The notes under the pieces: model-generated
What the model was told of the DNA's origin: nothing
Seen by the model: only the letters and a program-made list of their open reading frames with translations
Databases searched by the model: none
In this document: piece by piece, positions 11,916-53,109 of the stretch
Layout of the letters: every line of letters starts with the position of its first letter
Numbering within the stretch: the stretch's first letter is position 1
Made by a program: the position numbers and the translations under genes
Source of the DNA: Nemertoderma westbladi
Lineage: Eukaryota; Animalia; Xenacoelomorpha
Length of the DNA stretch: 56,644 bases
Assembly (NCBI GenBank): GCA_032718475.1
Contig: JAUCBJ010006940.1
Location: 1-56,644, forward strand
Direction of reading: 5' to 3'

Positions 11916-12133
11916 TGATATGTACTGATACGTACAATATACATGGCTCGCCCCTTATAGGACTATGTACCTAAGATACCGGTACCACGAGATAGGTGGA
12001 GGGTTTTCCCTATTGCTATGCTGTACTGATATTACACTGTACTGCTGTACTACACTTTTATATTATACGTGTCTGCCTTATATACTATTGATATTTATAT
12101 TATTGGGGATATTCCGATAGTGCAGACATACCA
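11916..12133 (+). repeat. 3' LTR of Gypsy element
   Basis: Direct repeat of 7035-7252 after PPT. Confidence 0.96.
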
Positions 12134-16604: not shown

Positions 16605-16935
16605 TCTTATTCACGATTTTAGTAGATTACATTTGGTGTTGGGGGGCTATTTCGTGTCGGAAAGTATTTTTATATTTTGATAGATGTATTAGGTTGTGTT
16701 GATATATTATTACTACTGTACCCCTTTTTTATTGTTGTTATCAGACTGCTATACTGCAGTACTGTCATATTGTTATCAGTGATTGGTGTAGATTGATGTA
16801 GTGCAGTAGTGCTATTATTTTTATGTACCACGGTCCTTATTACTACGGTACTAAATTTAGAATGCAGAATTGAGATATCTAAATACTGAAACTGCTGAAA
16901 TGTTTTTATATCCGAACCACTATGGGTTCGTGACA
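16578..16935 (+). repeat. 3' LTR of BEL/Pao element 1
   Basis: Direct repeat of 4715-5072, preceded by polypurine tract. Confidence 0.97.
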
Positions 16936-26034: not shown

Positions 26035-29000
26035 CCGCTCCCAGAAAATGGGATTTTCAGTCTATAAAATATAAAAATCACAGTTTCTAAAACATAAAGA
26101 TACTCTAAACAGTTAGTCTTTCTTACGCAGACGGCGTTTACGCAGTTTTTTGAGGCTAGCAAGAGTCCTTTTCTCTTTGGGGGGAGCCACTTTACTAGGA
26201 GGGCCATAACTCCTGGGTGAAGGGTGCAATATGATTGCATTAAAAGGTTTTGGTTTACGGTCGGTGTCTCGTCCATTTCGATATGCTTCTCCTCGAGCTG
26301 ATTTTCCTCCGCTTGTCATGGGATACGTTCGTCCAAAACTCTCGCAGAGAATAGGGTTTTCTAAGCTTGATATCTTCTTTGAGATTCGAGGTTTCCCAAT
26401 CGAACTGAGATAAGGCCAATTCGTTTATCGATTGGACTTACTGTTATAACTTACGTTTATCTGAACAAACGCAGGTTTCTTTTTTGATCTTTATAGAATA
26501 GCGTTTAACTCGTTTCGTACAACGCTCTCCTTCACCTTGATGAAGGGTTGTATCGCGTTAAACGGGACGACCATACGGTTGGATAGTGATATTAGGTGTC
26601 TGCGTCATAACCCAGCTAGGTAAGATGGGCGGCTAGCTAGAAATCACTGTCGGAGTGTTACCGATTAATTGTTAGGGTAGCACTAGATCTTGAACAGTGA
26701 ATACAGTCCGCGAGGATCCGCGACACCACCAGGATCGCAGGTCTGAGGTCCAACTAAGGAATGAGGAGGTTTGACTGAGGATTCCGGGACTCTGATCGTA
26801 GGTTTACTCCAGGATCGTTTGAGCCGAGTGAGCATAGGTGATACGTCAAACAAGTTTCGCTCGAAACTCCAGTAAATATAATGAGCACAATTGTGTTTAA
26901 CACAACGTTTCCGTGGATGTTTATGTCTTTCCGTTTATTAGTTGGGTCTAGGGCATTTATCATAATAATACTAAAGACGCACGTCTGGTAGGGTAAACGC
27001 GGGTGATATTTGTTTGTTGTTACAATGCTTCTATCAAGAATTCCAAATATACGTTGGAGTTACCGCGTCCATTTGTTTCTTTAGTGTCTTTTCTTTCGAG
27101 TCGATTTCGAATAGAATTTTCGCATTCGAATTTCAGTTTATGGTTCCGACTCCGCTGGGCAGGATATATAGTCGACATAGTCCGTATTGTGTAAATCGAT
27201 AGGATGACCAGTAGTTAAGAAGCCCATATACGTACCATTACGCTGCGTATATCGAGCAGCGAATTTTCTATAGTCCAACTCACGCGTGAGCTGCTCTTGG
27301 GACATTGGCGGTTCGATATAACGACCATCGTCCTCCGCAGCAGTTGGACTAACGTCGCCGCGTATTAAGCTATCAACAAACGCTTGTAAAAGTAGAGTAT
27401 ATTGCTCCCCGATACCAAGACCATCTTCTATCAACTCCGTCATATCTGCTATATATGAGTTTATCCATATTATAATGAGTCCACATTTAGGCGAGCGGGC
27501 GTCGCTGCCTACCCCAATCAACCCCCGGACAGTACGAGATCCTCAGCGCCGATGTGTCGTCGCCGCTGTACTTTCGCCAACGACGTAGCCGCACAACGAC
27601 AACGACAACCGGCACAAGTCACTCAACTGTCCGTCCCAAAGGCTTAGATGTACTTCAGGTTTTCCTTGGAGAGTTAGGTTACTTTACGATTGCGACTGGC
27701 TACTGTAAACACACCTTAGTAGTAACATTCGCCTATAAACTCACAAGTACCACACACACAACTTGTCACAAATTACACACACTCGGGTCACTTGTCCGTT
27801 AGTCAATGCCTTCCAGAATGTCACTGTATTATTATGTATCCTTGGATACTAGTAGTGCGCTATTTATTCCCTATGCTATTCAATGGGACAAGCTTTCTAT
27901 TGTTCTTTTAACTCAATTCTAATTCTAGTGTGGTTGTTGCTATGGTGACATTATGCAAAGCTAGCGGTAGAATTAGAGTAATTCCAATGCATACAGATCT
28001 GGGATGTTATTTAATAGTATTCTTTAATAGTCAATGTTCTGTTTTATACATGACTTTATGAATTTTATCGGCTATTGACTATGTTTGGGAGACTTTCACA
28101 CACTCATACGCATGATAAGATAAATCTCCGCTCCCTTGATCTATTAATTAATGGAATTTTGGGAACTTTATAAATTGCGTAAAAATGGCAATTTATTAAA
28201 TTCATTAAAAGGCATGAATTTAAATTTATTCCCTGAAATTTTATTATTTGACAACTAAATGGACATATTTTGATTCTAGAACATGTCTGGGGACACAAGA
28301 TCCTTAATTCTATGACCATTGTCTTTTTAAGAATATCGGTAAATGCTACGATATCTTAATTGACTAGAATTATTGCAGGATCTGAATTTTACAGATTTTG
28401 ATTTATTAGCTTTTGCAAATATTAATTAATTAATATTTGAGATGGGCACCGATTTATTCCAGAACTTGTCTGGGGACGTTAACCACTGATTCTAGAATTT
28501 GTCTTTCAAGTATATCGGTGGGTGCCGCGATATCTTAATCGACTAGAATTACAGATGGTCAAAGGGTTTAACAGATTTATTTTGCGTTATACGCTACTGT
28601 TAAAGGGACATCACGCTACTATATGTATTATTTAATATACGGTATGAGAGCAATATCGCACGAAGCAATGTCAGTGTGAAGAGGCAAGTCGTTTCCAAGG
28701 TCTACCCAGAGCTTGGTTTAGCCGAGACACGAGGATCTGAACTTTGCATTCCTAATACTCTGCCTACCAATAATACTTAAATATAGTAGTGGCTTTATTG
28801 TACTTTAATAAGTACGGACATTTCATCTTACTGTAGTTACGTATTTATAATATAATACGGACAGTAAGGAAAGAGAAAAATAATTATTTCTTCGCCGTCG
28901 CACTAAATATAATATAAGTAATTACGTACGTAATAAACACGAATATATTGCACTATTCTACAAAATAATCGCTAAATAATATTCTACTAAATTAAATTAA

Positions 29001-29100
29001 AGAAAACGATTATAATAAAATTACATAGTAATACATACAGAAATATAAAAATAATAAAATAATATAAAATAATAGAGTCACACACCCACTCCATATGTTG

Positions 29101-32100
29101 TTACGTTATGGAGTCCCTAGATGTTTGAAGGATTAGGGAGGTGGTCGTGGGATGAGAATCTTGCCTTCCACAGTTTCCGGAGAGTCCTCCATTCCCTTCC
29201 GGTAAACACAAACGACCGACTGGGTGATTGAGTCGCTGCATCCTGAATACAATTCCAGGTTTCCTCTTCGTCCTGGAATAGTGACGATAGAAACATCGCT
29301 CAAAGTATATGACGGCGTCACAAAGCCGATTCCAGGAGCTATAGTGGTCCGTCGCTCTCTGCAGGAGAGGTGAGAGTCCCTGCGAGACGTCTGATGTTCC
29401 AGAGCTCCAATCGCTCTCTCTGATCTTCATGAAGGATCCACTCGCGGAGGGGAGGCCCAGATCCACGGCGTCGTCCCTGGCAACATGTAATACCGACAGA
29501 TCTATCCCGGGTTCAAATAACTCCGATCCACCCGTCCGGGTTTCAGGTTCGACTTTCTCCGCTCCCTTGGCTGGTCTAATCTCAGTCGGAGTAAGATGGG
29601 GAGGCCATTCATTCTCCTTACTCAGGAAGTCGGGTTCACCTAACCGGTCTATAGTATCTGTCAGTTCTTGAGGAGTTGCTCCTCTGGAAGCGATGTCCGT
29701 TGGATTAAACTTCTTGGGGCAATATCTCCATTGATCTACATTGGAGCTAAGATTGTCATTATCTGAGGAGTGTGGTGTTCCCTCAGTTGGGTCGTCTCCC
29801 TCACTAGTATCGTCTTCCCATTCACTCACCTGGCAGACACGATCTTGAAGCAGTCTTTCCCTGAGCGTTCTACGGGAAGGTCCAGTAAGGTACCAACCTA
29901 CTCTAGTTCTTACCGCATAGGTCTGTAGTGGCTGCGGTTGAGCAGGTCGTTTCTCTAATGTCTCCAGCGCCTCATGCGCGTTTTGGCCGATGAGTATTTG
30001 CACTCCAGGATAATCAGTCTGGAATCGAGGTATGTTAAGATGTTGGATGCTCTCATCCTCGTCCCAATTATAAAGGTCTGCTTGAGTAGTAGCGAAGTTC
30101 TTTATAGCCACCATTTTCACTGACCTTATACTGTATTCTCCTAGTTTATCCTGTGGAGTGGACAACTCACCTATATAATAGTCGGCAGCTACAGTAGAAT
30201 TCCAAACCTGCATGATCCCTGACATGTTTAGCTTGGTTCGGAACTTGGGTTGTCCAGCAAAGATGACTTCGGCTAGTTCCCTATCGATGAATGTTCCTGT
30301 GCTACCGGAGTCCAGGAGGGCGTTCACTATATAGCTCTTCTGAGGTCCGTGGACCCGTAACTGGACTACAGGAAATTCTCGGATTCCTATATTGGAAGTT
30401 GGCGCTTTCCAAGATGGTTGTTGATCGGAAGTAGTTAAGGCAAGGTCGCTGTCTGTGTCTTTCTCATACACGAGTGCTCGATACACTGCGGTGGTGTTTA
30501 TTAGGTAACAGGATTCGTTTTGGTCGGAGAACTCGTCCGTATAGAATCCTTCCATCTCAGATTGATCAGTGTCGTTCACATCACTGAATTGGACATGTAG
30601 TTCGGACTCACTTACCTGACTCGGGCTGTTTCGTTCGAATTCCGTGTGCAACAAGATATGATGTTTTGCGCCGCACTTTGCACACCTTGCGTCGGAGTTA
30701 CAGGTTCGCCGTTGGTGTCCTCGTCTGAGGCAATTATAACACAACCGCTTATCCCACATGACTTCACGTCTATCCTCGAGTGATTTCCTCAGGAATTTAT
30801 CACACGCATTTAAACGGTGGGGCCCGTCGCACAGCACACATTTCGGCTTGATGTTACTTACTTTAACCTGTGCTATGTGGTGCACACTTGTTCTTTCCTC
30901 GGGCTTTCTCACCTGAATTCCTTTAGGAGACGTAGGAGGGGTTTTTTGTACCGGTTCCCTTCTGTCATTGGGTCGAGACTTGGATTTACTTACCTGTTCT
31001 TTAGGCATTTTATTGACATAATAAGGTCTGTCAGTGTCTTTCCCGCTGTCCTCTCCTTGAGAGGTTTGGCTTTCACCGTCGTCGGTATAACATACTGGTG
31101 TTACCCTTCTCCTAGAAACGGGTTTCTCACTTACCTTGTTTTCCAATGTCTTCTCTCTGGACTGCCTTAGGAGCTGTAATTTCACTTCTCCATCTAAGAA
31201 TGACATGAGATCAGCCATGGTAGGGTCTCGTCGTTGTTGTTCCATCATATATAACACTTTCTTATCCCAGCGTGTACCTACTCCACCCTTCGGTAAAGTA
31301 GAAGCCACTGCTCTAATAACCATAGCACTCTGATACTCATGAGACTTACCTAGCCAATCTAATTGTCTGCAGATCTCCTGAATTTCATCGGAAAACTCTA
31401 TAATCCCGCTGCTAATAAACTTTCGGGGCGCTACCAACTTTGCATACAAATACCCAGCTATGTTATTCCTATTACCATACCTGATGTTTAGTGTATCCCA
31501 AACTTGTCTTAATCCGTCTGGATGTCCAATAAACCTTAACGCCATTAACTTGGGAGATCCTTCCAAGCACTCGATGAGGTATCTAAGTTTTTCTCCATTA
31601 GATAGTACAGAGTTCTGTATGTTATCTTTGTAATATTCATTAAAAGGTAACCATTTCATCTCATCTCCATTGAACTTAACGATCTCTCCAACCTTTACCG
31701 CTTGCCGGGCTTCGGTTCTAGCCATTTGACGCGTAAAACTTTCTTGGGCCATCGTGCTATTTAATATCGAGTTATCGGTATATAAATTTCTCGGATTATG
31801 ATCAGTTCTATAGGGAATATCATTATCAACAGGTCTATAATTACCCTTAATAGGGTTCACTATAGGAGTTTCTACTTCGCTAGCAGTGTATATGCGTGTA
31901 GGCTCCACACCTTGCGCATGCAATACTTCAGACCTAACAGGTTGACACATTGTTACAGAGGGTGGTGGTATACCCTTTTGGGTGTTTACTAATTTATCGC
32001 GTTCAAGCGCGATACTTTGCTGCACTTCTTGCAACTCTAACCTACTTTCCCTTACTGTGCCCTTGAATTGTTGGACAGTCTCCTGCATCTGCCCGAGCAG

Positions 32101-33129
32101 GATATCCATCCCCCGCCGTCTCTCGTCCACCCAATCAACCGCCGAAACGGGATCCGCCAACGTCGTAGCGGGCAGACGAGGGACAACGGGCGACAAATTT
32201 GGAATATTTCGCTCGGGGTCCAGGACCTGAACTGTCTCCTGGGCAGTTCTACGGGGCACAGGTAGCTTAGTGCTATGCAGAGGGAATTTATAGGTAGCTT
32301 CAGGGAGCTCAGGCGTATCTATTACCGAAGGGGTGATTTCAAGAACAGGCCTACTTATTTCAGGCTCATCTACTATAGTAGGGAGTCTTTCTATTGTAAT
32401 TATTTGGTCTGTGGGTTCTGTACTCTCTAAGTTGTTGTTATTTAGTTGCCTTCTAACAGCTGGAGGCAAATCAGGCAATTTCTGTCGGTGGAATGTTCTT
32501 TTACGTCTGCTTAAGCGGGATCGATTTACTCCGCCTTCAGTGTCGGTGGTATCGCCTTCCTCGGATGATGTATAACCTTGTCGTTTAGGAGTAGATCGAT
32601 TCATCATCTGCATATTACTAGCTGTTAACTGTTTATTAAATTTATCTTGCCTCTCTTGAAGATTTTCCAACTCTAGTTGGGTTGTCTCTTCAGATGCCCT
32701 CCGTTCTGCTTCTGCCACTGCTATCTTTCTTTCGGCTTCTACTGCTGCAGCTGCCGCCTTTGCCTCTGCCGCTACCGCTTTTGCCTCGGCCGCTGCCTCT
32801 GCCGCTGCCTCTGCCGCTTTCTTTCTATCTTCTATACGTTTTTTCTTTACTTGTTCTTCTTGAACCTTAACGACGCGGAGTTGTTCATCGAATTTAGCTT
32901 GATTAGCCGCTAACCTATCCACGTCGATAGCGTCAAGCACACGCTGTGCTCCTTCGCTATTAGGGCTAAGTCCCTCTAGCCTTCTCCTCAACTCTTCATC
33001 TCCCAAAAAACGCTGATAGTCTGACAGATAGATATCAATGGCATCCTTCTTATGCGGTTTCTCTGCCGTCGCTTCGCTCTCGGTTGTATCTAGTAGACTG
33101 TCTGACAGGTTCTGCTTTGCGTCAGACAT
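29101..33129 (-). CDS. BEL/Pao Gag-protease polyprotein lacking RT, most of RNase H and integrase
   Basis: KFNGDEMKWLPF / EKLRYL (DUF1759), CVLCDGPH, CYNCLRRGH, CAKCGAKHH, ALLDSGSTGTFI, TRVGW..GP, then directly QWRYCPKKFNPTDIASRG and YSSW. Confidence 0.92.
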   Translation of the reverse strand: MSDAKQNLSDSLLDTTESEATAEKPHKKDAIDIYLSDYQRFLGDEELRRRLEGLSPNSEGAQRVLDAIDVDRLAANQAKFDEQLRVVKVQEEQVKKKRIEDRKKAAEAAAEAAAEAKAVAAEAKAAAAAVEAERKIAVAEAERRASEETTQLELENLQERQDKFNKQLTASNMQMMNRSTPKRQGYTSSEEGDTTDTEGGVNRSRLSRRKRTFHRQKLPDLPPAVRRQLNNNNLESTEPTDQIITIERLPTIVDEPEISRPVLEITPSVIDTPELPEATYKFPLHSTKLPVPRRTAQETVQVLDPERNIPNLSPVVPRLPATTLADPVSAVDWVDERRRGMDILLGQMQETVQQFKGTVRESRLELQEVQQSIALERDKLVNTQKGIPPPSVTMCQPVRSEVLHAQGVEPTRIYTASEVETPIVNPIKGNYRPVDNDIPYRTDHNPRNLYTDNSILNSTMAQESFTRQMARTEARQAVKVGEIVKFNGDEMKWLPFNEYYKDNIQNSVLSNGEKLRYLIECLEGSPKLMALRFIGHPDGLRQVWDTLNIRYGNRNNIAGYLYAKLVAPRKFISSGIIEFSDEIQEICRQLDWLGKSHEYQSAMVIRAVASTLPKGGVGTRWDKKVLYMMEQQRRDPTMADLMSFLDGEVKLQLLRQSREKTLENKVSEKPVSRRRVTPVCYTDDGESQTSQGEDSGKDTDRPYYVNKMPKEQVSKSKSRPNDRREPVQKTPPTSPKGIQVRKPEERTSVHHIAQVKVSNIKPKCVLCDGPHRLNACDKFLRKSLEDRREVMWDKRLCYNCLRRGHQRRTCNSDARCAKCGAKHHILLHTEFERNSPSQVSESELHVQFSDVNDTDQSEMEGFYTDEFSDQNESCYLINTTAVYRALVYEKDTDSDLALTTSDQQPSWKAPTSNIGIREFPVVQLRVHGPQKSYIVNALLDSGSTGTFIDRELAEVIFAGQPKFRTKLNMSGIMQVWNSTVAADYYIGELSTPQDKLGEYSIRSVKMVAIKNFATTQADLYNWDEDESIQHLNIPRFQTDYPGVQILIGQNAHEALETLEKRPAQPQPLQTYAVRTRVGWYLTGPSRRTLRERLLQDRVCQVSEWEDDTSEGDDPTEGTPHSSDNDNLSSNVDQWRYCPKKFNPTDIASRGATPQELTDTIDRLGEPDFLSKENEWPPHLTPTEIRPAKGAEKVEPETRTGGSELFEPGIDLSVLHVARDDAVDLGLPSASGSFMKIRESDWSSGTSDVSQGLSPLLQRATDHYSSWNRLCDAVIYFERCFYRHYSRTKRKPGIVFRMQRLNHPVGRLCLPEGNGGLSGNCGRQDSHPTTTSLILQTSRDSIT

Positions 33130-33209
33130 GCTTATGTGTACAGTTGAATGTCTACTGCTGTATTACAGTCTGAGCAAGTCTAGTAACTCAGTATTAACTG
33201 CTAGCCTAG

Positions 33210-33640
33210 TAATTAATTACCGGTACTGCTACTCAGTGTAGCGTGATATATATATAATATATTAAAATACCGGTATGCTTATAGTATATATAAGTATTAT
33301 TACAGACTAGGTTTATCTCAGAATACCGGTATAATTTTAGCACAAATATATATAAATATATAATAGGCCTATCGGGAATACCGGTATACAGCTTACAATT
33401 TGTAGTATATATAATTCTGGACTAGAATTAATTACAAGTACCGGTATAATTTCAGCCTAAATTTATAGAAATAAAGATAATAGGCCTATCGTAAATACCG
33501 GTATGCAGTTTACACTTATAGTATATATATAAGTATAATTACAAACTAGAATTAATTACAGAATACCGGTATGATTTCAACCTAAAATTTATAAAAATAA
33601 ATATAATAAGCCTATTGTAAATACCGGTATATCAATTATT
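33210..33640. repeat. Degenerate about 60/120-bp repeats centred on TACCGGTA in the element leader
   Basis: Recurrent ATACCGGTA, TAGGCCTAT and GACTAG blocks. Confidence 0.75.
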
Positions 33641-34569
33641 TTAAATAACTGAATTTCTAAATTTTAAGGGTTACTTGGTTACTTTAACTTACTTTATTGC
33701 CGTTATTTAAGCAGTAGTCCAACTGATATTGAGACCTAATTGTTGTATGGCAGGCCTACTATTTATAAATCGTTTGAGTTGATTTATAATATATATATAC
33801 CCGTTTAATGGGTTTTGTCAATGTTGAAATAAATGTTATTATTTCTGGGGAGTAATCACTACACAAAGCGGTGCGCTTTCAGTGAAGTGTTACTTATAGG
33901 ACACTAAAACAAATAATTCTAATTTACCTAAGTTACTTAATACTACAAATTACGTACAATTCGGGTTGAGATTACAATCTCTAAATAAACACAAAAATTT
34001 ACAAAAACACAAAATACGAAATTTTTAGGGTAATTTTACAAGAAGTCTACAAACCAGCCTAACAAAGGGTTAGAAAACCGGTTATTACAACGGACAGGGT
34101 ATTACGGTATTTGAAATAATAAGTAGTAGTAAATACACTGCGTTGTCTAGATAGGAAAATACCACCGCCTGACGACCTATAGCCGTATCGCTATAGGTTC
34201 TACGTTATGTATCACGGAGTGTTCCTACCTAGAAGTTAATAGAGCTAATCGAATGTGCCTATCAACCACTTTACAACACAGATATAATGTCTACAATAAT
34301 TACTTCGGAAAGTACTGTACACTAAACCCTAAATTAGGTACGAGTACTTGTATAACAGATAATCAGTAGTTAAATATACTTGAACAGCTAAAAGAACCAC
34401 GGCATCTGCTGGAGTGACCGATGCACAAAATCACCAGTCTTTACCTACGCCGAGCAGCCCGTGTAGTACCGGGGTTAATTTAACTATAGCGGTATGTATA
34501 ACAAACACAATTACTGTAGGAACAAACTTAGGGAATGAATGTTGCGGATAATCGCATAAACTCTGAATA

Positions 34570-35140
34570 ATAAATATTACGCTACGCGTACAAACTACTC
34601 AAACAAAATACAGACCGAACACTGACAGACTACTATCAAGCCTAAACAAACTACGGTATATGCAGACTCCGAAATGATTAGGGAGTATGCGCTCTAACCC
34701 AGTAGTGCGACTTATTCTTTAGTTGGGGGTTTACCTTACAGCGTTCGCTGCCCCTACTGCCTAACCGTACTTAATCGGACAGATGATCTACACACGCGGC
34801 AATCCGTTCAGACCTAATAACAGCCAGACAACTATCCAGCCTACAAATTATCTAAGTAAAATTATACGCTACCCGTACAGACTTACACAAACAAAGTACA
34901 GACTAAACGATGGCAGACTACTCTCAAGCCTAAATAAACTACAGGACATGCAGACTCCGAAATGATTAGGGAGTATGCGCTCTAACCCAGTAGTGCGACT
35001 TATTCTTTAGTTGGGGGTTTACCTTACAGCGTTCGCTGCCCCTACTGCCTAATCGTACTTAATCGGACAGGTGATCTACACACACTGCAATTCGTTCGGA
35101 CTTAACAGCAATCAGACAACAGCTCAGCCTACAAATCGTC
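34570..35140. repeat. About 288-bp tandem duplication in the leader of BEL element 2
   Basis: CAGACTCCGAAATGATTAGGGAG at 34663 and 34951 with a long near-identical core. Confidence 0.9.
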
Positions 35141-35465
35141 TGTACAATCTGATCAGGCTTACACGCCTTCTGTTCAATACTGGCCTACAAATAAATAAAA
35201 CTTGACAGAAATAAGTAAAATCTCAATAAAAAATCAGGGCGGCCGTTCCCTGATTAAGTACTAAGACCTACCGGTATACAACAATCAAATCGAATAATAC
35301 TAGTGTACTTATACGGAAGTACCGGTTAGGACAGCTAGGCCTACGGAATACAGAAGTACCGGTTCTAGCGGTTGGGCCTACTGACTACTGACCTACAGAT
35401 GTACCGGTTCAAGTTTACCGGTTGACCGGTACTTTCAACTTTATTGCTTACTGCAACAAAGAAGC

Positions 35466-35477
35466 TATATCCTTTAA
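35466..35477 (-). promoter_or_regulatory. Candidate self-primer binding site (non-tRNA PBS) TTAAAGGATATA
   Basis: Abuts the 5' LTR; exact reverse complement of the LTR-internal 12-mer at 36271-36260; same pair in copy 2 (51748-51759, 52509-52520). Confidence 0.6.
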
Positions 35478-36713
35478 TGTTCGCGCTTTCAGACCTTTGG
35501 CAGTTTAACCCGCCAAATTAAGATGTCTTCTAGATATTAAATCGCTTTTTAGCCTATGACAAGTATTTGATTCACTACACTAGTCGAAACCAATCTGTGC
35601 GCGACCATTCACCCGCTGGATATTCCCGGGAGATTGGGTTCGACGGTTTAATTTTGTTGCTATGTAAGCCTAATGTATTATTCGACTGACAGTATTATAT
35701 AATCTCTGACAATATTATTCACCTTCGGGGAATATTAACAGTTCCTTTAGGACGTGGCGCTTTATCTATATAAACAGAGTTATGACTTAAACTACTCACA
35801 ACGATATGGCTTAATTATAATTCACATATATGGCGCATTCTTTAGGAATTGCTTCTTTAACAGACTCACTCATACACAATGCTGCACAATACTGCACACT
35901 AATCTGCCAATCTTCACTGATTTTAGTCACATATAAAAGGAACACAGACTGACTCATGTAGGGTCTATCAAATAACATTAGATTCACTTCAAACCACTTT
36001 AACATAAGTCACAATCTTTATTGGTAACCTTTCTCTCTTACCTTCGGTATATCAAGAATATTGGGTTTTCGGGGGTTATTTCTCGTTATTCCAATATAAT
36101 AATTCATCAACCAACATAATGAATAACCGACAACAAATAGCAGTATACAGTATCGATTGAGCAGGTAATTTTAGCAGTTTCAGCAGTTATTACAAGCCGT
36201 GTGTCAGCAGTCAGTGTATTCCCAGATCAGTGATTCCATGAGTTTGATCGGTATGTCAGTTAAAGGATATATGCCCTTATAATTAAACCTACTAGTGTAA
36301 GACTAAAAACTGAAAACACGGAGGTGCCAAAAGCCGGTTCTTAGGCTCTGGGCAAAAACATAACACTGAACTACTGAGTTTCTGTATATACCTTCAACAC
36401 AGAGACAACAAACGCTCTGATTGGTCAACCTGAACAACGAGAGAACAGAGAAACAAAGAAACGTCGACGTGGCAATATCAGCTGCTAGCCGTCGTCATGG
36501 TAGCGACACTGTTTTCAAGAGTATCGAGCTTTTACGTCACGGAATTACGGATTATGTCCTCTAAAGTACAAATACAGAAGAAATAGCTTTTATGTCCACT
36601 AAAACACCAGTACAGCAAGGACACGGCCTTTTTATGCCTGGTAAACCAACTACAGAGTATTTTACGGGAAAAATAAGGAAAAATAACCGGACAATTCAGC
36701 AAAAGCTTTTACA
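35478..36713 (-). repeat. 5' LTR of BEL element 2
   Basis: TG...CA bounded direct repeat of 24799-26034. Confidence 0.97.
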
Positions 36714-38077
36714 AACACACTACTGAAGTGATCGCCCCACGAGTTGGCGATATTCTGGGGACCGGATACATCATCGATTACAGGCGAGGGAGGAGCGGAG
36801 GAGGAGTTTTCCTTTCGAATGTTTTGCCAAAACTTAAAACAGACTTTATCCATAAGCGAATGAGCTAACTTGTCCGCGCGTAGCGTCGCTGCATTACGTT
36901 TGACTGCTCGTAAACGCCGTTTGAACTGAGAACGTGTGGAGCACATCTGGCGGAACACGGGACCTTCTCGAGGACTGCCCATTGAGCGCCAGTAGAGAAA
37001 ACAAGAACGAGATGCCTCGTGAAGCATGCCGACCTCGTCATTCCAACCGGGAACGCCGCAGGGATGGGACGAAGAGGGAGAAGGTTTCCGAGTAGGTATC
37101 GTTGCCTCAGCAATGGAGACTAAACCGTCAACAATAGTATCATAGAATGTGGAGATGCACTCCAGGTGACTAGAGGCGCCACAGTGTGGGTTAGTGCAGG
37201 AAACAGCATCGAGTGGAAATACCAGCTGCGATAAAAACTCGTTGGTGGCCTCCCTGTAACGACCGAGGTTGTAAGGTGATGCTTTCTCCCACTGTGGTAA
37301 GGGTCTGCGGGCCGCAGCGGGAGTCTCGGAATTGTGAGAAACAACGGGGGGAGGCGAGCCACCGTCGATCACAACTGTAAGAGGTAAATGATCATCGAAG
37401 GTTAGTGAGTAGTTAACCGAAATATCCCGGATTGAACTAATCATGGACCCTGTGCAGACACAGTGGTCCAACCAAGAAGTAGATCCGTGCGAGGAGCTAA
37501 CGAAACTGAAGGTATCACTGGGTAGATAATTAAAGTCAGCAATGTGGAGACCGGAGTCAGAACAAACACTAGACAAGTCCTTGAAGAATAAGCGGGTTGG
37601 ATCTGCATTGAAATCCCCTATAATGCACACTTTATTAGAGGGGGCCGTTTCGGATATAGCAGCAATTCTACCCAGATAATCCAAATACTCATTATGGTTG
37701 TCGGAAGACTCGTAGGGAAGGTAAACATTCAGAACAATCACAGAAGAGCCATCCGGGCAGGAAACGGAAAGAACCATGATCCTTGGGTCTGAGCTTTCAA
37801 GGATCCGGACGAAGTTTGAACCTAAAGATTTCCTCCACAACACCCCCAGGCCACCGGAAGGCCTGCCGGATAAGATACCAGCCTCAAGGTCAGTAGGGGA
37901 GGAACCGAAGCCAAAGTGGTCAGCAGATAACGAGTTCAAGAAGTCCAGGCTCTGTTTAGTAAGCTGGGTCTCTTGAAGAAGGATTATGTCACAATCTCGG
38001 GCCATTTCTTTGACTACAAATTGACTAGAGAGGGATCTAACCGAATTACAATTATAACTTCCGATTTTAATAGCCAT
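36714..38077 (-). CDS. LINE ORF2, APE endonuclease half
   Basis: SYNCN, LQET, GRPSGG, VYLP, GDFNAD, LDH, DDH, PGWN. Confidence 0.93.
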
Positions 38078-38615: not shown

Positions 38616-40122
38616 TGAGCATTAAAATACCTGAGTGTTTAAAGCTCATCTATCCCATCATAGTAGACATGTACCGTACAACAAGAGTCCCACAAGAAAT
38701 GAAAACAAATAAGTTGGTGCCAGTTCCCAAGAAGGGCAACCTAACACTCTATGGTTCTTTTCGGGGAATCTCATTGATCTCGATTGCTGCAAAGCTATAC
38801 AATAGGATTCTATTAAATCGCATCAGGGATCCCATTGAGAGACTGCTCCGTGAAATCAGAATGGGTTCCGTAAAGGTCGTGGGACCATGGAGCCCATTTT
38901 GGCACTTAGAAGGATAATTGAAGAATTATCAAAAAAGAAAGACAGGCATCTGGCTGTTATCTTTGTTGACTTCTTCAAGGCCTTTGATTCAGTCTCTCGC
39001 TCACGTATGTTCAGCATACTTTCATTATATGGGATTCCTGATGAAATTATTGCAGCAATCAGATCAGTATACGATGGTTCGACAACATTTGTGTCTACTG
39101 TTGACGGTGACACAGAACCATTTGAAGTGTTATGGGGCGTCCTCCAAGGAGACACACTTGCACCATTCTTGTTCATTATTGTGGTTGACTATGTTCTACG
39201 CATGTCCGTAGATCATCATAATGATGATGGGGTGATGATAACTCCACCTACTGGCTCCAGAAGTCGAGGAAATCCTGCCAAGTACCTAACTGATCTAGAC
39301 TTTGCTGATGACTTAGGAGTACTCTCAGAATCATTAGAGGGAGCCCAACGGCTCCTCAGCTCATTAGAACATGCTGCTTCTAGTGTTGGTCTTTTTATTA
39401 ACTCCAGAAAGACCAAAATTCTGACAGTTAACTTTGAAAGTCCTCAGCAAGTCTCTGATCGGATGAGCATAAGCTCAAAGGATGGTATGCTTGAGCATGT
39501 GGACGACTTCTGTTACCTGGGATCATGGATCCGGAAGTCAGGTGAGGACCTTCGAATACGTAAGGGAAAGGCATGGGCAGCCTTGAATAGGCTTTCCAGG
39601 ATTTGGAAGTCACCGAGAATTAATCGGAAACTTAAGGTCCGATTATTTAGAGCAGCAGTAGTTCCAGTACTCCTCTACGGGAGTCCATGCTGGGCTCTAA
39701 CTGCTGAGGACACCAAATCTCTGGATGGCACATTCACAAGAATGCTACGCCGGGTTCATTGTGTCAAGTACAATGCACACATCTCCAACCAGACACTATA
39801 TAACATTGGAGGTGTCTCATTGGTTCCCCCAAGCTTGACACTAGAACAAAATCGCCTCCGCTTTGCAGGACATTGCTTTCGCCGTGAGGACCAGCCAGTG
39901 CATAATCTTGTACTTTGGCAGCCTCATGGAGTGAATAAGCATGGTGGACAGCCCATGACTTTCTTGAGACGCATCTTAATGGACACTGGCCTTAAAGATG
40001 CGGATGATCTAGCAAATGTCATGGGTGATAGGGAGTTGTGGCGGTGCAATTTTGTTGACAAGCCGGCACAGCATTCTTAAAAATGCAGCTGCAATGCAGC
40101 ATGCCGATCCTAGTAGTAGTAG
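38616..40122 (+). mobile_element. RTE-clade LINE, 5' truncated, (TAG)n tail
   Basis: PKKG, FRGISL, VDFFKAFDS, GVLQGDTLAPFLF, FADD, RLRFAGHC; short 3' UTR then TAGTAGTAGTAG. Confidence 0.92.
38887..40080 (+). CDS. RTE reverse transcriptase (partial; upstream piece 38615-38860 in another frame)
   Basis: RT motifs as above; frameshift near 38855. Confidence 0.9.
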   Translation: MEPILALRRIIEELSKKKDRHLAVIFVDFFKAFDSVSRSRMFSILSLYGIPDEIIAAIRSVYDGSTTFVSTVDGDTEPFEVLWGVLQGDTLAPFLFIIVVDYVLRMSVDHHNDDGVMITPPTGSRSRGNPAKYLTDLDFADDLGVLSESLEGAQRLLSSLEHAASSVGLFINSRKTKILTVNFESPQQVSDRMSISSKDGMLEHVDDFCYLGSWIRKSGEDLRIRKGKAWAALNRLSRIWKSPRINRKLKVRLFRAAVVPVLLYGSPCWALTAEDTKSLDGTFTRMLRRVHCVKYNAHISNQTLYNIGGVSLVPPSLTLEQNRLRFAGHCFRREDQPVHNLVLWQPHGVNKHGGQPMTFLRRILMDTGLKDADDLANVMGDRELWRCNFVDKPAQHS

Positions 40123-41165
40123 TGAACGACGAGCTCTATGGTACTATACCACCTGTATCAACCACCCTCCGTGAACGCCGAGCTCTATGGTACTATACCA
40201 CCTGCTGTACCAACCACCCTCCGTGAACGCCGAGCTCTATGGTACTATACCACCTGTATCAACCACCCTCCGTGAACGCCGAGCTCTATGGTACTATACC
40301 ACCTGTATCAACCGCCCTCCGTGAACGCCGAGCTCTATCGTACTATACCTCCTGTTTCAACCACCCTCCATGAACGCCAAGCTCTATGGTACTATACCAC
40401 CTGTATCAACCACCCTCCGTGAACGCCGAGCTCTATAGTACTATACCACCTGTATCAACCACCCTCCTTGAACGCCGAGCTCTATGGTACTATACCACCT
40501 GTATCAACCACCCTCCGTGAACGCCGAGCTCTATGGTACTATACCACCTGTATCAACCACCCTCCGTGAACACCGAGCTCTATGGTACTATACCACCTGT
40601 ATCAACCACCCTTCGTGAACGCCGAGCTCTATGGTACTATACCACCTGTATCAACCACCCTCCGTGAACACCGAGCTCTATGGTACTATACCACCTGTAT
40701 CAACCACCCTCCGTGAACGCAGATCTCTATGGTACTATACCACCTGTATCAACCACCCTCCGTGAACGCCGAGCTCTATGGTACTATAACACCTGTATCA
40801 ACCACCCTCCGTGAACGCCGAGCTCTATAGTACTATACCATCTGTATCAACCACCCTCCGTGAACGCCGAGCTCTATGGTACTATACCACCTGTATCAAC
40901 CACCCTCCGTGAACGCCGAGCTCTATGGTACTATACCACCTGTATCAACCACCCTCCGTGAACACCGAGCTCTATGGTACTATACCACCTGTATCAACCA
41001 CCCTCCGTGAACGCCGAGCTCTATGGTACTATACCACCTGTATCAACCACCCTCCGTGAACGCCGAGCTCTATGGTACTATACCACCTTTATCAACCACC
41101 CTCCGTGAACGCAGATCTCTATGGTACTATACCACCTGTATCAACCACCCTCCGTGAACGCCGAG
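40122..41165. repeat. 49-bp satellite, about 21 copies (right block of the same array)
   Basis: Same unit and orientation as 20472-23131. Confidence 0.98.
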
Positions 41166-41332
41166 TCAACACACCAGTCGGGATTCCCTCGCCAACTCGG
41201 GGGACCCGTCGCAAGATATATAAATCGTATTAGCAATACTTAATTAAGAAGCAATTAATAGTCAATCAAATAATATAGACTATTTGTTGGAATTTGTAAA
41301 ATATCATCACATTTTGTTAATTTACCACTCAC

Positions 41333-42628
41333 CGAAAATAGGAAGTCCCACACCCGTGTTCTGAGTTTGGTCGGTTCACATATCGTGGATTCGAGTTTGG
41401 TTGGTTCACATATCGTGGTTCACAGTTTGGTTGGTTCACATATCGTGGTTCAGAGTTTGGTTGGTTCACATATCGTGGTAGTTCAGAGTTTGGTTGGTTC
41501 ACATATCGTGGCTCCGAGTTTGGTTGGTTCACATATCGTGGGTCAGAGTTTGGTTGGTTCACATATCGTGGATTCGAGTTTGGTTGGTTCACATATCGTG
41601 GATTCGAGTTTGGTTGGTTCACATATCGTGGTTCAGAGTTTGGTTGGTTCACATATCGTGGATCAGAGTTTGGTTGGTTCACATATCGTGGTTCAGAGTT
41701 TGGTTGGTTCACATATCGTGGATCAGAGTTTGGTTGGTTCACATATCGTGGATCAGAGTTTGGTTGGTTCACATATCGTGGTTAAGAGTTTGGTTGGTTC
41801 ACATATCGTGGTTCAGAGTTTGGTTGGTTCACATATCGTGGTTCAGAGTTTGGTTGGTTCACATATCGTGGTTCAGAGTTTGGTTGGTTCACATATCGTG
41901 AATCAGAGTTTGGTTGGTTCACATATCGTGGGTCAGAGATTGGTTGGTTCACATATCGTGGTTCAGAGTTTGGTTGGTTCACATATCGTGGATTCGAGTT
42001 TGGTTGGTTCACATATCGTGGATCAGAGTTTGGTTGGTTCACATATCGTTGTTCAGAGTTTGGTTGGTTCACATATCGTGGATTCGAGTTTGGTTGGTTC
42101 ACATATCGTGGTTCAGAGTTTGGTTGGTTCTCATATCGTGGTTCAGAGTTTGGTTGGTTCACATATCGTGGTTCAGAGTTTGGTTGGTTCACATATCGTG
42201 GTTCAGAGTTTGGTTGGTTCACATATCGTGGATTCGAGTTTGGTTGGTTCACATATCGTGGTTCAGAGTTTGGTTGGTTCTCATATCGTGGTTCAGAGTT
42301 TGGTTGGTTCACATATCGTGGTTCAGAGTTTGGTTGGTTCACATATCGTGGTTCAGAGTATGGTTGGTTCTCATATCGTGGTTCAGAGTTTCATTGGTTC
42401 ACATATCGTGGTTCAGAGTTTGTTTGGTTCTCATATCGTGGCTCAGAGTTTGGTTGGTTCTCATATCGTGGTTCAGAGTTTCATTGGTTCACATATCGTG
42501 GATTCGAGTTTGGTTGGTTCACATATCGTGGTTCAGAGTTTGGTTGGTTCTCATATCGTGGTTCAGAGTTTGGTTGGTTCTCATATTGTGGTTTAGATTT
42601 TGGCTGATTCCCACATCGTTCACATATC
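41333..42628 (-). other. Candidate exon encoding (YVNQPNSEPR)n, with one in-frame TAA at 41784-41782
   Basis: Acceptor TATAG at 42629 and donor CG|GTGAGT at 41332; 1296 nt, phase 2-2; the only indel is 3 nt. Confidence 0.35.
41360..42600. repeat. 30-bp minisatellite, about 41 copies
   Basis: Unit TGGTTGGTTCACATATCGTGGTTCAGAGTT. Confidence 0.98.
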
Positions 42629-42913
42629 CTATATAATTATCAGCTTATGAGGTTTTGCTGGAATATATTCGACTATATTTAGTAGATTTCGGTAGTTGAA
42701 TTCGGAAATGATTCACGGTGTTTTACCTATTAGAACAATAATTTAATAATTTTAATTTAAAAATAAAGTTACAATGAAGTTTGTACAAAATAAAATAAAG
42801 TTACAATGACAATGACGATGAGATGGACTGATCTGATTAGAAAATAATTTGTAATATAAAATCAATTTAATAACCTTATAATATATTATATTTACAGTCC
42901 ACTATACTATTTC

Positions 42914-45900
42914 CTAACTGTCTTTATGTTTTTTTCTAGTTAGTAATTTAACTAAGTGGCTCTGGTTAGTTTTATTCAATAATTCACAGAATACAATAAA
43001 GTCATCATAAGGTCTCCTTTTAATGGCTTCTATTAGTTCGCTGTTCCTTTGTAAACCAGTCGGCTGATATTTGATCTGCTCAATAAGATTTTCAGTAAGA
43101 ATATTTCTACTTCTCAATAGCGGTAACAATTCACTCAGCTCCATGTTATAAACCAGTTCAACTTTATTCCTCATAAGAATATTTTCAAATTCTACATCAA
43201 CATTTCCTTTTATCATATCTACTAAATGTTGTTGGTTTGTTTGTGTTAAACTATCCATAAATACTTTCATAATGAACTCTGATTTCCCTTTCAGAGATTC
43301 TATAATGGCTCGGCTCTTTAGTATTTTCGTTTCTCGTGTTTCTATAAACTGAATCTGATCATTGTTTAGTATAAAACTTTTTTCGATATATAGTAATAAC
43401 TCAGTTGGTTCAAGTTTTTCTTCAAATTTTATTGTTTCAACTTTTAAATATTCCTGATCCTTCGATTTAACTAAAAACCAAGTTTTATATTCCTGAGTTT
43501 CTATACTTGCATTATTCTCACAGGTAATTATTGGTTTACTCAAACAATCTGATAGTAGAATAAAGTGGATACATGATTCATTGTGGCATTTATATAGACC
43601 ATGCCTTTCACATTTATATGAACAAGGACATGTTACTTTCAATTGAAAATCAACAATATTGTTCATTTTTCCAGCTGATATAAGTTCTCCCAAGCTGTCA
43701 ACAATGTAATCTTTTACTCTGTTTGCAAAATCAGAATCTGGAGGACTTATAATATTTTCGGTGCTATCAATATTATCTTTAGGTTTCATAAGAACTTTTC
43801 TTACAATTTGAACTTTTATTCTTGAAAAATGCCTTGGAGACACATATAGAATTATATCGTGATCAACATCACAGTATATAACTACAGACCGGTAGTAAAG
43901 AGTTGGTTCAGATTTAATATCTCCAATGAGATACGACCATTCTATAAGGCGTTTTACTAGTCGATAAAATAGACCCTCAGGTAAAAAACCATTAAAAGCA
44001 ATAAAAAATTCAATATCATTTGCTTTAATAGGGTAAATAGGCTGATTGGCATTTTTAAGTCTACAAGGTACATAATATGATTTATTCATTTTTGACTTTT
44101 TTAACAATGGTTCTGATTCGTCTCCATTACCTGGCACAGTTTCTCCTATTCTTTCACATATTAAATCAAAACGCTCTAGGATTTTTAACATAAAATTTTT
44201 TTTGAGTCCCATATTACCCCAGATATCGTCCAGTAAATCCCAGTGCAATACACCCTTGTCATCCAAATCCTCAAAATATTTCAAATTTTTCCAATTTATA
44301 TGTTCTTTGACTGTAATAATACTGGCAAACATTGAACTTAACCACTCTGGTTTCAATATAATTGTATCACGCAACGATTCTTCATCAAAATAGATAATTC
44401 TACCTCTATCATGGTAAAATTCTAACATTGTCTTTAAACCGGGGTATTCAAATTCTACTTTTATTTCCTTTAACTTACATTCTAAATCTATAATATCAAT
44501 ATAAACGTCATTATTTTTAAGTAATTGAGTTACAAGTTTTTCAAATTTTAAATAATCCAAAGGAATTTCTTCCTTAAATTTGTCCATTTCTTTAACAATT
44601 TCTAACTGTAAGTTTTGAAGTTCTTCATCTGAATCTGATCTTGCCTCTTTGCTATTTTCCACAGCAAATGCTTCTTTAACTAAAATATTGCAATGCAATG
44701 TGGACTTTAATAGTTGGAAAATTTCCTTAAACTTTTTACGAGCTAAAATGTTCTGAGTTTCTGGATCTTCATGCAAACTGGCTTTCTTTGTTCCAACTAA
44801 GAATACTGGAGGACCAGAAATGTTTGCGGCACTTTCTGAATTATTTTCACCAAATGTAAATATATTGCGCAACCAAAAATCAATAAATTCTATATTAGTC
44901 ATCTCGCTATATATCTTATTTATATTCTCTTCATCGGCTCTGAATATAATGTTGGCTGTTTTATCAGCATCTTGGGTAAGATCAAAAACAACTATATAAA
45001 TAGCCCGTCTACTTAGAAACATCTGATGGGTTGTATAATAAATACATTGGCCACCAAAATCGACTATCTGTAGTGAAAAGCGACTGTCTTCCTCATTAAA
45101 TTTAGCCAGAATATCTTGAGGTTTACCAGATAACAATATATCCTCTATACCTTTTGAGACTTCTGCAGGGATATCATATTTATTGTCCTCAAATATTGAT
45201 TCATGTGGCGTTACGACTTTTCCGCTATCAGATATATTTCCTCTTTCGCTATCTACTGAAATATCTTCTCTAATTTCCTTGCTGCGTTCTATTTTAACAG
45301 GCTTATCATAAGAACTGGTTCTATTATTCATGTCTCTATCGCTATTTTCACCAGATATTACTGATAAAGTTGACTGGATGCCATCAGTGTATATTTTTTC
45401 ACTGTCCACATTAGAAGCATCTTCTTGAACTTTGAATTCTAGAACACTTTTTGCAACTTTCTTTGCAACAGCATTGTCTGGATCAGCCTCTAAAATATCA
45501 ACATTCTTTAAATTAGTCCAGTCTGTGTGTTTATCAGTATCTATAACACAATTAGCCACTGAATCAATACCATCTGTTATTGGTTCATTAATATCAAACG
45601 GTTGACCAATAAGGGCCTTCTTCAAACTAGTTTTACCAGCCCTCTCTTGTCCCACTAACATTAACCGGGTTTTCAATATCCATGTAGTCCCTTTAGAAAG
45701 AGCTGCTTTATAAGCAGCCAATGCTTCTGGCCCTCTCGCCAGTATCTCTACAGGCAGTTTTTGTTTTTTTATATAATTAATTAAAAATTTTGGAAGTCTC
45801 ATTCTATTTGTTCCACTTATATTCATAATCATAAGTCCCATGTCTCTGAATTTATTAACAATTTCTATTGTTGAAACTTCATTTAAACCCCAAATACTAA

Positions 45901-46176
45901 CCAGTTTCTGGGTTGTTAACTCAGAAATATCTGCATCCAGTCTAAAGTAAAGTTCTTTCTCTTTATCTGAAAGAACATCAACAGTAGATATAATTATATT
46001 AGTTATCTTACCCTGGAGTGGTTTATTTATGGGACCAACCCATCCAATATACTCAACAATTTCCTTTAATTCTTCAGCTTTCTCCAATATACTTTCCACC
46101 TGTTTGATACTTTTCTTTCTTTCAGTTTGATCTTTACTGAACGTATCAATTACTGTAATTGTGCCGCCATCATCTC
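42914..46176 (-). CDS. Roco-family protein, large 3' exon: end of WD40, winged-helix, Roc GTPase, COR, two CARD-like death folds
   Basis: P-loop GQERAGKTS, TDGI, DFGGQ..YYTTHQMFLS..AIYIVVFD, PPVFLVGT, COR L.FYHDRG.IIYF...IL.PEWL, YYVPC; two C-terminal L..L....IL.......I...TNQ.HLV repeats; acceptor TTTATACAG|GA. Confidence 0.9.
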
Positions 46177-46498
46177 CTGTATAAAGTATAATTATTGTTA
46201 AGCTGTCTTTCCACAGAGTTGACATCCAATATTACGATGAAAGAAACTGGGTGGGAGCAAGTTAAATTTTATTAATCAAATTACAAATATAATTATAAAT
46301 ATAATTCGTTAGGGTCTCCAATATGCACCTACGGTCCCTATACGTTTCCCTGCCTATGTCTTCTGTTTTTTGGTTACAACATTTATTCTGTTTTTGGTGC
46401 AATTTTCAACAGATATAAAGTCGTACATTACGTTAGTCAATTCTGCAATTTATATTAGAATCCTATGCAATGTCTTGCAATGCATTGCAATGTCCTGC

Positions 46499-46820
46499 AA
46501 TATAAACAACTACCCGCGATACTATATACTATTAATATAAACAACTACCCGCGATACTGTATACTGTTAATATAAACAACTACCCGCGATACTGTATACT
46601 GTTAATATAAACAACTACCTGCGATACTGTTAATATAAACAACTACCCGCGATACTGTATACTGTTAATATAAACAACTACCCGCGATACTGTATACTGT
46701 TAATATAAACAACTACCCGCGATACTGTATACTGTTAATATAAACAACTACCCGCGATACTGTATACTGTTAATATAAACAACTACCCGCGATACTGTAT
46801 ACTGTTAATATAAACAACTA
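46499..46820. repeat. 35-bp minisatellite, about 9 copies, intronic
   Basis: Unit AATATAAACAACTACCCGCGATACTGTATACTGTT. Confidence 0.95.
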
Positions 46821-47988
46821 TACTACTACTACTACTACTAGGATCGGCATGCTGCATTGCAGCTGCATTTTTAAGAATGCTGTGCCGGATTGTCAACAAA
46901 ATTGCACCGCCACAACTCCCTATCACCCATGACATTTGCTAGATCATCCACATCTTTAAGGGCAGTGTCCTTTAAGATGCGTCTCAAGAAAGTCATGGGC
47001 TGTCCACCATGCTTATTCACTCCATGAGGCTGCCAAAGTACAAGATTATGCACTGGCTGGTCCTCACGGCGAAAGCAATGTCCTGCAAAGCGGAGGCGAT
47101 TTTGTTCTAGTGTCAAGCTTGGGGGAACCAATGAGACACCTCCAATGGTATATAGTGTCTGGTTGGAGATCTGTGCATTGTACTTGACACAATGAACCCG
47201 GCGTAGCATTCTTGTGAATGTGCCATCCAGAGATTTGGTGTCCTCAGCAGTTAGAGCCCAGCATGGACTCCCGTAGAGGAGTACTGGAACTACTGCTGCT
47301 CTAAATAATCGGACCTTAAGTTTCCGATTAATTCTCGGTGACTTCCAAATCCTGGAAAGCCTATTCAAGGCTGTCCATGCCTTTCCCTTACGTATTCGAA
47401 GGTCCTCACCTGACTTCCGGATCCATGATCCCAGGTAACAGAAGTCGTCCACATGCTCAAGCATACCATCCTTTGAGCTTATGCTCATCCGATCAGAGAC
47501 TTGCTGAGGACTTTCAAAGTTAACTGTCAGAATTTTGGTCTTTCTGGAGTTAATAAAAAGACCAACACTAGAAGCAGCATGTTCTAATGAGCTGAGGAGC
47601 CGTTGGGCTCCCTCTAATGATTCTGAGAGTACTCCCAAGTCATCAGCAAAGTCTAGATCAGTTAGGTACTTGGCAGGATTTCCTCGACTTCTGGAGCCAG
47701 TAGGTGGAGTTATCATCACCCCATCATCATTATGATGATCTAAGGACATGCGTAGAACATAGTCAACCACAATAATGAACAAGAATGGTGCAAGTGTGTC
47801 TCCTTGGAGGACGCCCCATAACACTTCAAATGGTTCTGTGTCACCGTCAACAGTAGACACAAATGTTGTCGAACCATCGTATACTGATCTGATTGCTGCA
47901 ATAATTTCATCAGGAATCCCATATAATGAAAGTATGCTGAACATACGTGAGCGAGAGACTGAATCAAAGGCCTTGAAGAAGTCAACAA
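46821..47988 (-). mobile_element. Second RTE copy, 5' truncated, in the Roco intron (ORF 46871-48004)
   Basis: Near-identical to 38960-40122 in reverse; (TAG)n tail at 46821-46840. Confidence 0.95.
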
Positions 47989-51280: not shown

Positions 51281-53109
51281 TGTAAAAGCCTTTGCTGAAT
51301 TGCCCCGTTATTTTTATTATCTTTTACATTAAAATACTCTGTAGTTGATTTAATAAGTGTAAGAGACCGTATTATTGCTGTATCGGTGTTTTTAGAGGAT
51401 CTAAGACCTATTTCCTCCGTATGTGTACTGTGAAAGGCATATTTTGTGATTCTATGGCAATTCGTGACGCAAAGGGGTGATAGCTACTCTTGAACAGTAG
51501 TTACTATGACTACGGTTAACAGCTGACATTCATACGTGTTGATTTCCTTTGTTCTACGGCGTCTCTCAGTTCAGTCAGCCAATGAGAGCGTTTTTGTGGC
51601 TCCTTGTACAGAAAATTTCCGAGAAATGACGCAATGCCTATGTGCAGTGTTTACATTCAGTCTTGAGCCAAAGAAAGAACGGCTTGGAAGTATTTTGTGC
51701 TGTACTGCTTTTTAGTCGTACACTAGTAGGTTTAATTATAAAGGGCATATATCCTTTAACTGATGACTGCTGACTGATCATACATGCTGACTGCTGAAAC
51801 ATTGCAAACTCATAACAATCAGTGTTTTCATTGTTGTTTTATACTGCTATTTACCGTCAGTTCTTCATAATATGGTTGATGAATAATTATATTTGGAATA
51901 ACGATAAACAACCCCTAAACCCAATATTCTTGATATACCGAAGGTAAGAGAGAAGGGTTACAAATAAACGATTGTGACTTATGTTAAAGTGGTTTGAAGT
52001 GAATCTAATGTTATTTGATAGACCCTACATGATTCAGTCTGTGTTCCTTTTATATGTGACTAAAATCAGTGAAGATTGGCAGATTAGTGTGCAGTATTGT
52101 GCAGCATTGTGTATGAGTGAGTCTGTTAAAGAAGCAATTCCTAAAGAATGCGCCATATATGTGAATTATAATTAAGCCATATCGTTGTGAGTAGTTTAAG
52201 TCATAACTCTGTTTATATAGATAAAGCGCCACGTCCTAAAGGAACTGTTAATATTACCGAAGGTGAATAATATTGTCAGAGATTATATAATACTGTCAGT
52301 CGAATAATACATTAGGCTTACATAGCAATAAAAATTAAACCGTCGAACCCAATCTCCCGGGAATATCCAGCGGGTGAATGGTCGCGCACGGATTGGTTTC
52401 GACTAGTGTAGTGAATCAAATACTTGTCATAGACTAAAAGCAGATTTAATATCTAGAAGACATCTTGATTTGGTGGGTTAAACTGCCAAAGGTCTGAAAG
52501 CGCGAACATTAAAGGATATAGCTTCTTTATTGCAGTAAGCAATAAAGTCGAAAGTATCGGTCGACCGGTAACCAGTAGGCCTGACTGCCTGATCATCCGG
52601 ACCGGTACCTACTTCCGTATAAGTACAGCAGTATTATTCGATTTGATTATATATGCCGGTAGGTCTTAATAATTAATCGGGGACGCCTGGTTTTTATTGG
52701 GATTTTACTTAGGCCTATTTCTGTCAGTTTTATTTGTTTGTAGGCCAGTATTGAACAGAAGGCGTGTAAACCTGATCAGATTGTACAGACAATTTGTAGG
52801 CTGAGCTGTTGTCTGATTGCTGTTAAGTCCGAACGAATTGCAGTGTGTGTAGAGCACTTGTCCGATTAAGTACGGTTAGGAAGTAGGGGCAGCAACGCTG
52901 TAAGGTAAACCCCCAACTAAAGAATAAGTCGCACTACTGGGTTAGAGCGCATACTCCCTAATCATTTCGGAGTCTGCATGTCCTGTAGTTTATTTAGGCT
53001 TGAGAGTAGTCTGCCATCGTTTAGTCTGTACTTTGTTTGTGTAAGTCTGTACGGGTAGCGTATAATTTTATTTAAATAATTTGTAGGCTGGATAGTTGTC
53101 TGGCTGTTA
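51281..53109 (+). mobile_element. Truncated relative of BEL element 2: 5' LTR (51281-52508) plus about 600 bp of leader
   Basis: Starts TGTAAAAGC, ends CGCGAACA; downstream sequence matches the reverse complement of about 34815-35477. Confidence 0.93.

Follow-up and report, generated by a model that had tools for sequence, protein, structure and literature searches.

Element organization and primer site

The window, by which we mean the whole stretch of 56,644 nucleotides of Nemertoderma westbladi DNA that was analyzed, contains on its minus strand an element lying between two 1236-bp LTRs that are 99.9% identical to each other. The 5' LTR (36713-35478) and the 3' LTR (26034-24799) have TG...CA ends, and a 5-bp target-site duplication, GTGTT, is present on both sides of the element (36714..36718 and 24798-24794, minus strand). 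The element is a young, recent insertion that interrupts a LINE between the endonuclease frame and the reverse transcriptase (RT) frame of the latter. A 2.3-kb leader, within which a 278-bp tandem duplication of 88% identity is found (34572-35136), precedes a single open Gag-protease frame (29101..33129, minus strand). The encoded protein has a DUF1759 domain, three Cys-His motifs, and the motifs LLDSG and LIG, and the frame reads straight on into a short remnant resembling the end of RNase H. This copy lacks RT, and a search of 26035-29400 for an integrase remnant found none; mobilization would presumably have to occur in trans. The approximately 3 kb that separate the stop of the Gag-protease frame from the 3' LTR (26035-29100) contain no long frames, only small ones of 103 and 134 codons. 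Ahead of the 3' LTR there is only GGGAGCGG, an unusually weak polypurine tract; that of the family is about 10 nt. No close protein relatives were found, the matches listed having identities of 20-45% over local stretches. The summed contig depth of the family, which is not a copy number, was very high in two public DNA runs and suggests that the family is abundant.

The LTR ends and short target duplication, the DUF1759 Gag, the triple Cys-His array, and the LLDXG and LIG protease motifs are those of the Belpaoviridae, as far as the accessible text of the Sinbad description extends (PMC554778). The element differs from this family in having neither the RT nor the integrase of Pol and in its primer site. 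The ICTV account assigns to BEL/Pao elements an 18-nt site for tRNA-Arg or tRNA-Gly (PMC8742986), whereas the 477 nt inspected beyond the 5' LTR of this element contain no TGG. The element is non-autonomous and BEL/Pao-derived rather than a full member of the Belpaoviridae.

Directly after the 5' LTR the sequence is TTAAAGGATATAGC (35477-35464), of which positions 35466..35477 (minus strand) form a primer-site word abutting the LTR. The exact complement of this word, the 12-mer TATATCCTTTAA, is located in the 5' LTR at 36260..36271 (minus strand) and again in the 3' LTR at 25592-25581, and is a candidate for the 3' end of a primer. Pairing of the two words stops exactly at the LTR edge (offset 0); beyond the 12-nt helix there is a one-base bulge followed by two further pairs (GC). 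The initial annotation is confirmed in these respects, namely that a TGG is missing and that an exact 12-nt complement in the LTR pairs up to the LTR edge. When the LTR was shuffled 5000 times with its dinucleotides preserved, a 12-nt match arose once at offset 0 and twice at offsets 0-3, and in an empirical scan 41 of 110,792 window 12-mers were complementary to a segment of the 1236 nt ahead of them. The other LTR elements of the window, a second BEL/Pao element with matching 359-bp LTRs (4715-16936) and a Gypsy element nested inside it (7034-12133), both have TGG primer sites and a self-complement of only 4 nt.

It is conceivable that the match is a coincidence or a relic, in which case the 12-mer would be conserved for a role in a core promoter while its complementarity would have no present function. 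The 12-mer does lie inside a promoter-like block, the element's protein is distant from the clade of relatives described below, and very many elements were screened. The host LINE, too, matches the primer-site word exactly over 11 nt, at a point 49 nt past the 3' LTR (24750-24740, minus strand); it is probably due to chance and shows that matches of such length do arise in this way. Nevertheless, we consider coincidence very unlikely, since the chance is about 4 in 10,000, the match falls at the exact position of the relatives' design, and no alternative primer site is present in this recently mobile element.

Two further observations on complementarity were set aside. Primer-guided target choice, considered in view of the 11-nt flank match, was rejected because none of 16 relatives has a match of at least 10 nt in its flanks. 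Three additional complements of 9-10 nt between the conserved LTR block and U5 are partly palindromic, one of them being broken by a common variant at 35814, and were not relied on.

Elsewhere in the window, two inverted LINE RT fragments of 1161 bp that are 99% identical (38963-47988) enclose tandem repeats and an uninterrupted Roc-COR-CARD frame of 1105 codons (42914-46231); this Roc-COR gene resembles clusters that are commonest in molluscs, which points weakly to a host among marine invertebrates. From about 20329 onward there is a long tandem array, the 49-bp units of which are about 98% alike.

The LTR 12-mer and its promoter-like context

A second, truncated copy of the element (51281-53112, plus strand) comprises an LTR (51281-52508), the 12-mer (51748-51759), the primer-site word (52509-52520), and part of the leader. 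The 12-mer belongs to a conserved block (36256..36310, minus strand) that also contains a T-rich tract ending in TTTTTAG (36303), a possible splice acceptor with which the block begins in the variants seen, together with a TATA-like box and an initiator-like motif. Between the two copies this block, also when taken as 36319-36256, is 87% identical, as against 62% upstream and 55% downstream. A conserved block among differing flanks had been noted initially at roughly 45 nt, and its extent is now revised to about 55 nt. The initial annotation had further pointed to the same pair of words in the diverged copy. Both words are indeed there, but the second copy is 97% identical to 36074-35478 and the primer site sits in an unbroken 54-nt identical run (35511-35458), so the primer-site word of that copy adds little evidence and is not independent. 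Of the two words, only the LTR word lies within diverged sequence.

Public contigs contained several subfamilies with the same block, diverging about three bases after the 12-mer. Small indels cluster at 36249-36258 in these contigs, and depth drops steeply from 36261 to 36249. A template with its end in this neighborhood would account for divergence just past the 12-mer. Among the substitutions listed at a frequency of at least 2%, none falls in the 12-mer; this invariance is not specific, because a single substitution is listed in the whole 176 nt examined. The initial annotation had proposed looking for compensatory changes between the two words, and within the window family there were none, no variant of either word being seen in the public contigs.

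The TATA-like box, TATAAGGG (36274..36281, minus strand), has two mismatches to the TATA consensus TATAWAWR, and its counterpart in the second copy, TATAAAGG, has one. The box begins 10 nt before the 12-mer, and the caveat raised at the outset, that a TATA-like box so close upstream may place the 12-mer in U3, still stands. The usual distance from TATA to start is about 30 nt; this spacing would put the start of the RNA near 36251, beyond the 12-mer, and leave its 5' end with no primer. An initiator-like motif, GGCATA (consensus BBCABW; 36270..36275, minus strand), is present in both copies and would place +1 at 36272. A CCAAT box (36420..36424, minus strand) is likewise kept in both copies, as is an initiator-like CAGT that comes after it at 36367 and is a candidate upstream start. 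An AATAAA is located 237 nt after the 12-mer (36017..36022, minus strand). Nineteen nucleotides before it, a strong splice-donor-like GTAAGA (36041-36036, minus strand; both copies) might act as a curb on polyadenylation in the 5' LTR or might serve a spliced Gag mRNA.

These features allow self-priming to be imagined from the other end of the RNA. The TATA-like box would then be the true promoter, with a transcript beginning near 36251. The 12-mer would be the end of U3, carried only by the 3' LTR, where it would pair with the primer site and be cut; the 3' part of one RNA would prime, and a second packaged RNA would accept the jump. The single mismatch in the second copy's box accords with such a promoter, as does a sequence context resembling that of the TATA-like boxes of three relatives (L040, L059, and L074), which lie much further upstream. 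High variability right after the 12-mer is what would be expected near a U3/R border, and an exact complement would still have a use. However, conservation ends 24 nt after the TATA-like box, short of the usual start, and the region around 36251 in which transcription would be expected to begin is not conserved. The cut would presumably also strip R and the poly(A) tail off the molecule concerned. In addition, relatives with an LTR intron (below) have their TATA-like boxes upstream of the splice donor, which fits a supply of the primer from the 5' LTR. A primer taken from the U3 end of the 3' LTR was found described for no LTR element in the literature searched. On balance, we hold priming from the 3' LTR to be unlikely. 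The weaker TATA form is that of the recently inserted copy; its share of contig depth is 72% and 86% in one pair of runs and 28% and 36% in another. That a copy with the weaker form has moved recently speaks against the box as the only promoter, as do the initiator-like motif and the CCAAT box in both copies and the T-rich tract of the block. With a start at or upstream of 36272, the box would be a second start, giving primer-less RNA, or no promoter.

When RNA from 36272 to 35421 was folded, the 12-bp helix was within the minimum-energy structure for both copies. From the upstream start the helix would cost 4.3 and 9.5 kcal/mol, and with the RNA extended to 35380 its predicted probability was 0.01-0.09. 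Folding predictions of this kind do not decide between transcript starts. The primer site is flanked by a predicted U5 hairpin just before it (35496..35517, minus strand), the pairing of which is kept in the second copy via a C-G to U-G change, and by a predicted leader hairpin just after it (35439..35461, minus strand), which has G-U here and A-U in the second copy.

Self-complementarity in BEL/Pao relatives

Relatives were collected using an alignment of seven full-length protein hits as the query, yielding 79 metagenome loci (from the best 80 of at least 594 confirmed stretches) and 15 genome-collection loci, 94 in all. These marine BEL/Pao relatives may belong to a Sinbad/Suzu-like clade. 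Three scans of viral contigs gave no loci. Loci L080-L093 are BEL/Pao elements inside contigs of prokaryotic genome records, and most likely represent animal host DNA binned or assembled into those records.

For 16 of the 94 loci, the LTR end could be fixed independently of complementarity, from both LTRs and the flank past the 3' ends. One of the 16, from a Wolbachia assembly, has a TGG. Twelve of the 15 others possess a 10-13-nt complement of the primer-site word in their own LTR, which is contiguous in four cases and in eight is formed only across a GTRAG...YAG splice junction internal to the LTR. Self-complementarity amounted to 4 nt in the three TGG elements examined. Words paired across loci matched in 7 of 340 cases, six of them among three families with one common word, and shifted words matched in 1 of 912. 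Some calls depend on the settings: L088 has 11 nt under the looser acceptor filter and 8 under the strict one, and L030 and L059 reach 11 and 12 nt only once the LTR end is shifted by about 10 and 7 nt. A free scan returned junction matches of at least 11 nt in 25 of 58 loci, some of which are copies of the same family; control words gave 2 when reversed, 2 when complemented, and 7 when taken in the same sense.

The primer-site words of the relatives are diverse. Among 27 tabulated loci, chosen for giving a call, there are 24 different words, and sister families change both words together (L003/L005, L083/L084, and L059/L074/L078). This diversity bears on the possibility that the pairing is structural, acting as a switch or as an aid to 5'-3' circularization, and that a host RNA lacking a CCA end, such as a tRNA half, is the primer. 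Lineages of plant Ty1/copia elements are known to prime with half-tRNAs, according to the available portions of PMC6317226. A host primer predicts few common words, whereas those found are many and each matches its own LTR; the window element moreover has no TGG, and there was no Rfam match in 33100-36800. We therefore judge a host primer of this type to be quite improbable.

The relatives also bear on the form that priming would take. The initial annotation proposed Tf1-type self-priming in a BEL family, and the part of this proposal that concerns priming by the element's own RNA gains from the match of each relative's differing word to its own LTR. A primer formed by the extreme 5' end of the transcript, as also proposed, would fit the initiator-like +1 at 36272. 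In several relatives, however, TATA-like boxes precede the pairing segment by 49-240 nt, or splicing creates the segment, and there the primer would be a longer 5' fragment. Given these distances, the "first 11 bases" form of Tf1 is probably not used. The relatives in which the match exists only at a junction include L008, L023, L027, L037, L040, L044, L083, L084, and L088, with introns of 75-1022 nt and GTRAG donors. A splice-built primer was rejected for the window element, for which the best junctions gave 9 nt and 8 nt in the two copies, at different sites.

The window element is atypical in several respects. The closest TATA-like box to a pairing segment in the relatives is at 28 nt, none being as near as the 10 nt seen here, and the distance from primer end to LTR end is 782 nt as compared with 44-247 nt. 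The window word stands at offset 0 and begins with TT, whereas the words of 22 of the 27 relatives begin with GT, mostly after a spacer of 2-4 nt. In a quick Gag-protease tree, from which L040, L044, L088, and L093 were omitted because their open frames were not long enough, spliced and contiguous types are interleaved and starred branches force at least five changes, as if the LTR intron had been repeatedly lost or gained. The window protein forms a long branch (3.21) outside the starred 30-row clade. As it falls outside the clade tested, the relatives provide a strong prior, not direct proof, for the window family. It could be that much BEL/Pao diversity self-primes, often by an LTR-spliced primer, and that the window family is the odd one, with its promoter atop the primer and a primer from the U3 end of the 3' LTR; to this combination we give only a small chance.

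A model for priming and its implications

From the complementarity of the two words and its recurrence among relatives, we regard self-priming in some form as likely. The probable course, in our assessment, is that the packaged RNA carries the 12-mer copy of the 5' LTR and that this copy anneals to the primer site; cleavage would free its 3' end for extension by the RT of a partner element. The RNA would begin at or upstream of 36272, so that the 5' LTR copy of the 12-mer is included. The 12-mer would pair with the primer site, predicted to lie between two hairpins. Next would come a cut directly behind the 12-mer, as in Tf1, for which the Pol of an autonomous relative would probably provide the RNase H in trans. 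RT would then extend the cut 3' end through U5 and R before jumping to the R of the 3' end. Each step past base complementarity is modeled on Tf1. The model is supported because the match is rare by chance and because relatives repeat the design with words of their own. It is weakened by the TATA-like box 10 nt before the 12-mer, by the atypical distance, offset, and TT start, and by the long-branch protein. Further points against it are the low helix probability with a longer 3' end, the energy cost from the upstream start, and the want of covariation within the family.

Tf1 uses its first 11 bases as primer, which are cut by RNase H, as stated in the accessible parts of PMC7175516; Tj1 has been proposed to prime like Tf1 in those of PMC4600332. 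For the plant Tcn1 and TAR lineages, self-priming has been predicted from a complement of at least 10 nt located 0-5 nt from the LTR (PMC6317226, available text). In Tf2, transcription from a start that lies downstream of the LTR yields an RNA without the primer, according to the available text of PMC5341516. Tf1/Tf2 of Schizosaccharomyces pombe, Tj1, the Tf1/sushi group, and Tcn1 resemble the window element in having no tRNA site and an LTR segment complementary to the sequence beside the 5' LTR (PMC7175516, PMC4600332, and PMC6317226, each as far as its accessible text goes), but they belong to the Ty3/gypsy superfamily. With 12 nt at offset 0, the window element falls within the complementarity range of the Tf1/sushi group, while its Gag-protease is of BEL/Pao type and not that of a chromovirus. 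It would thus work like Tf1 without being a member of the Tf1/sushi group. The plant Ty1/copia TAR lineage (Houba and Osr-1), for which the available text of PMC6317226 predicts self-priming from the same range, differs in its Copia proteins and plant hosts.

In a survey of BEL/Pao elements (PMC3118150) the words primer, PBS, tRNA, and priming are absent, as are PBS and tRNA from the Sinbad paper (PMC554778). The accessible portions of PMC3601003, PMC6934838, PMC8220671, PMC13524379, and PMC3587641 contain no BEL/Pao self-priming. Nor was a claim of it found in the titles and abstract openings of the openly accessible literature searched.

Descriptions of self-priming concern Gypsy elements of the Tf1 type, and a prediction of it exists for a single plant Copia lineage, the BEL/Pao elements being profiled as tRNA-primed. 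The window element is BEL/Pao-derived and does not have the tRNA primer site by which that family is characterized. If the model is correct, a third LTR superfamily would self-prime; it would do so in animals and across many families, some variants using an internal primer and others one that splicing assembles. The family definition would then need revision, and primer sites missed by tRNA-based annotation would be explained. Self-priming elements would also be beyond the reach of silencing by tRNA fragments.
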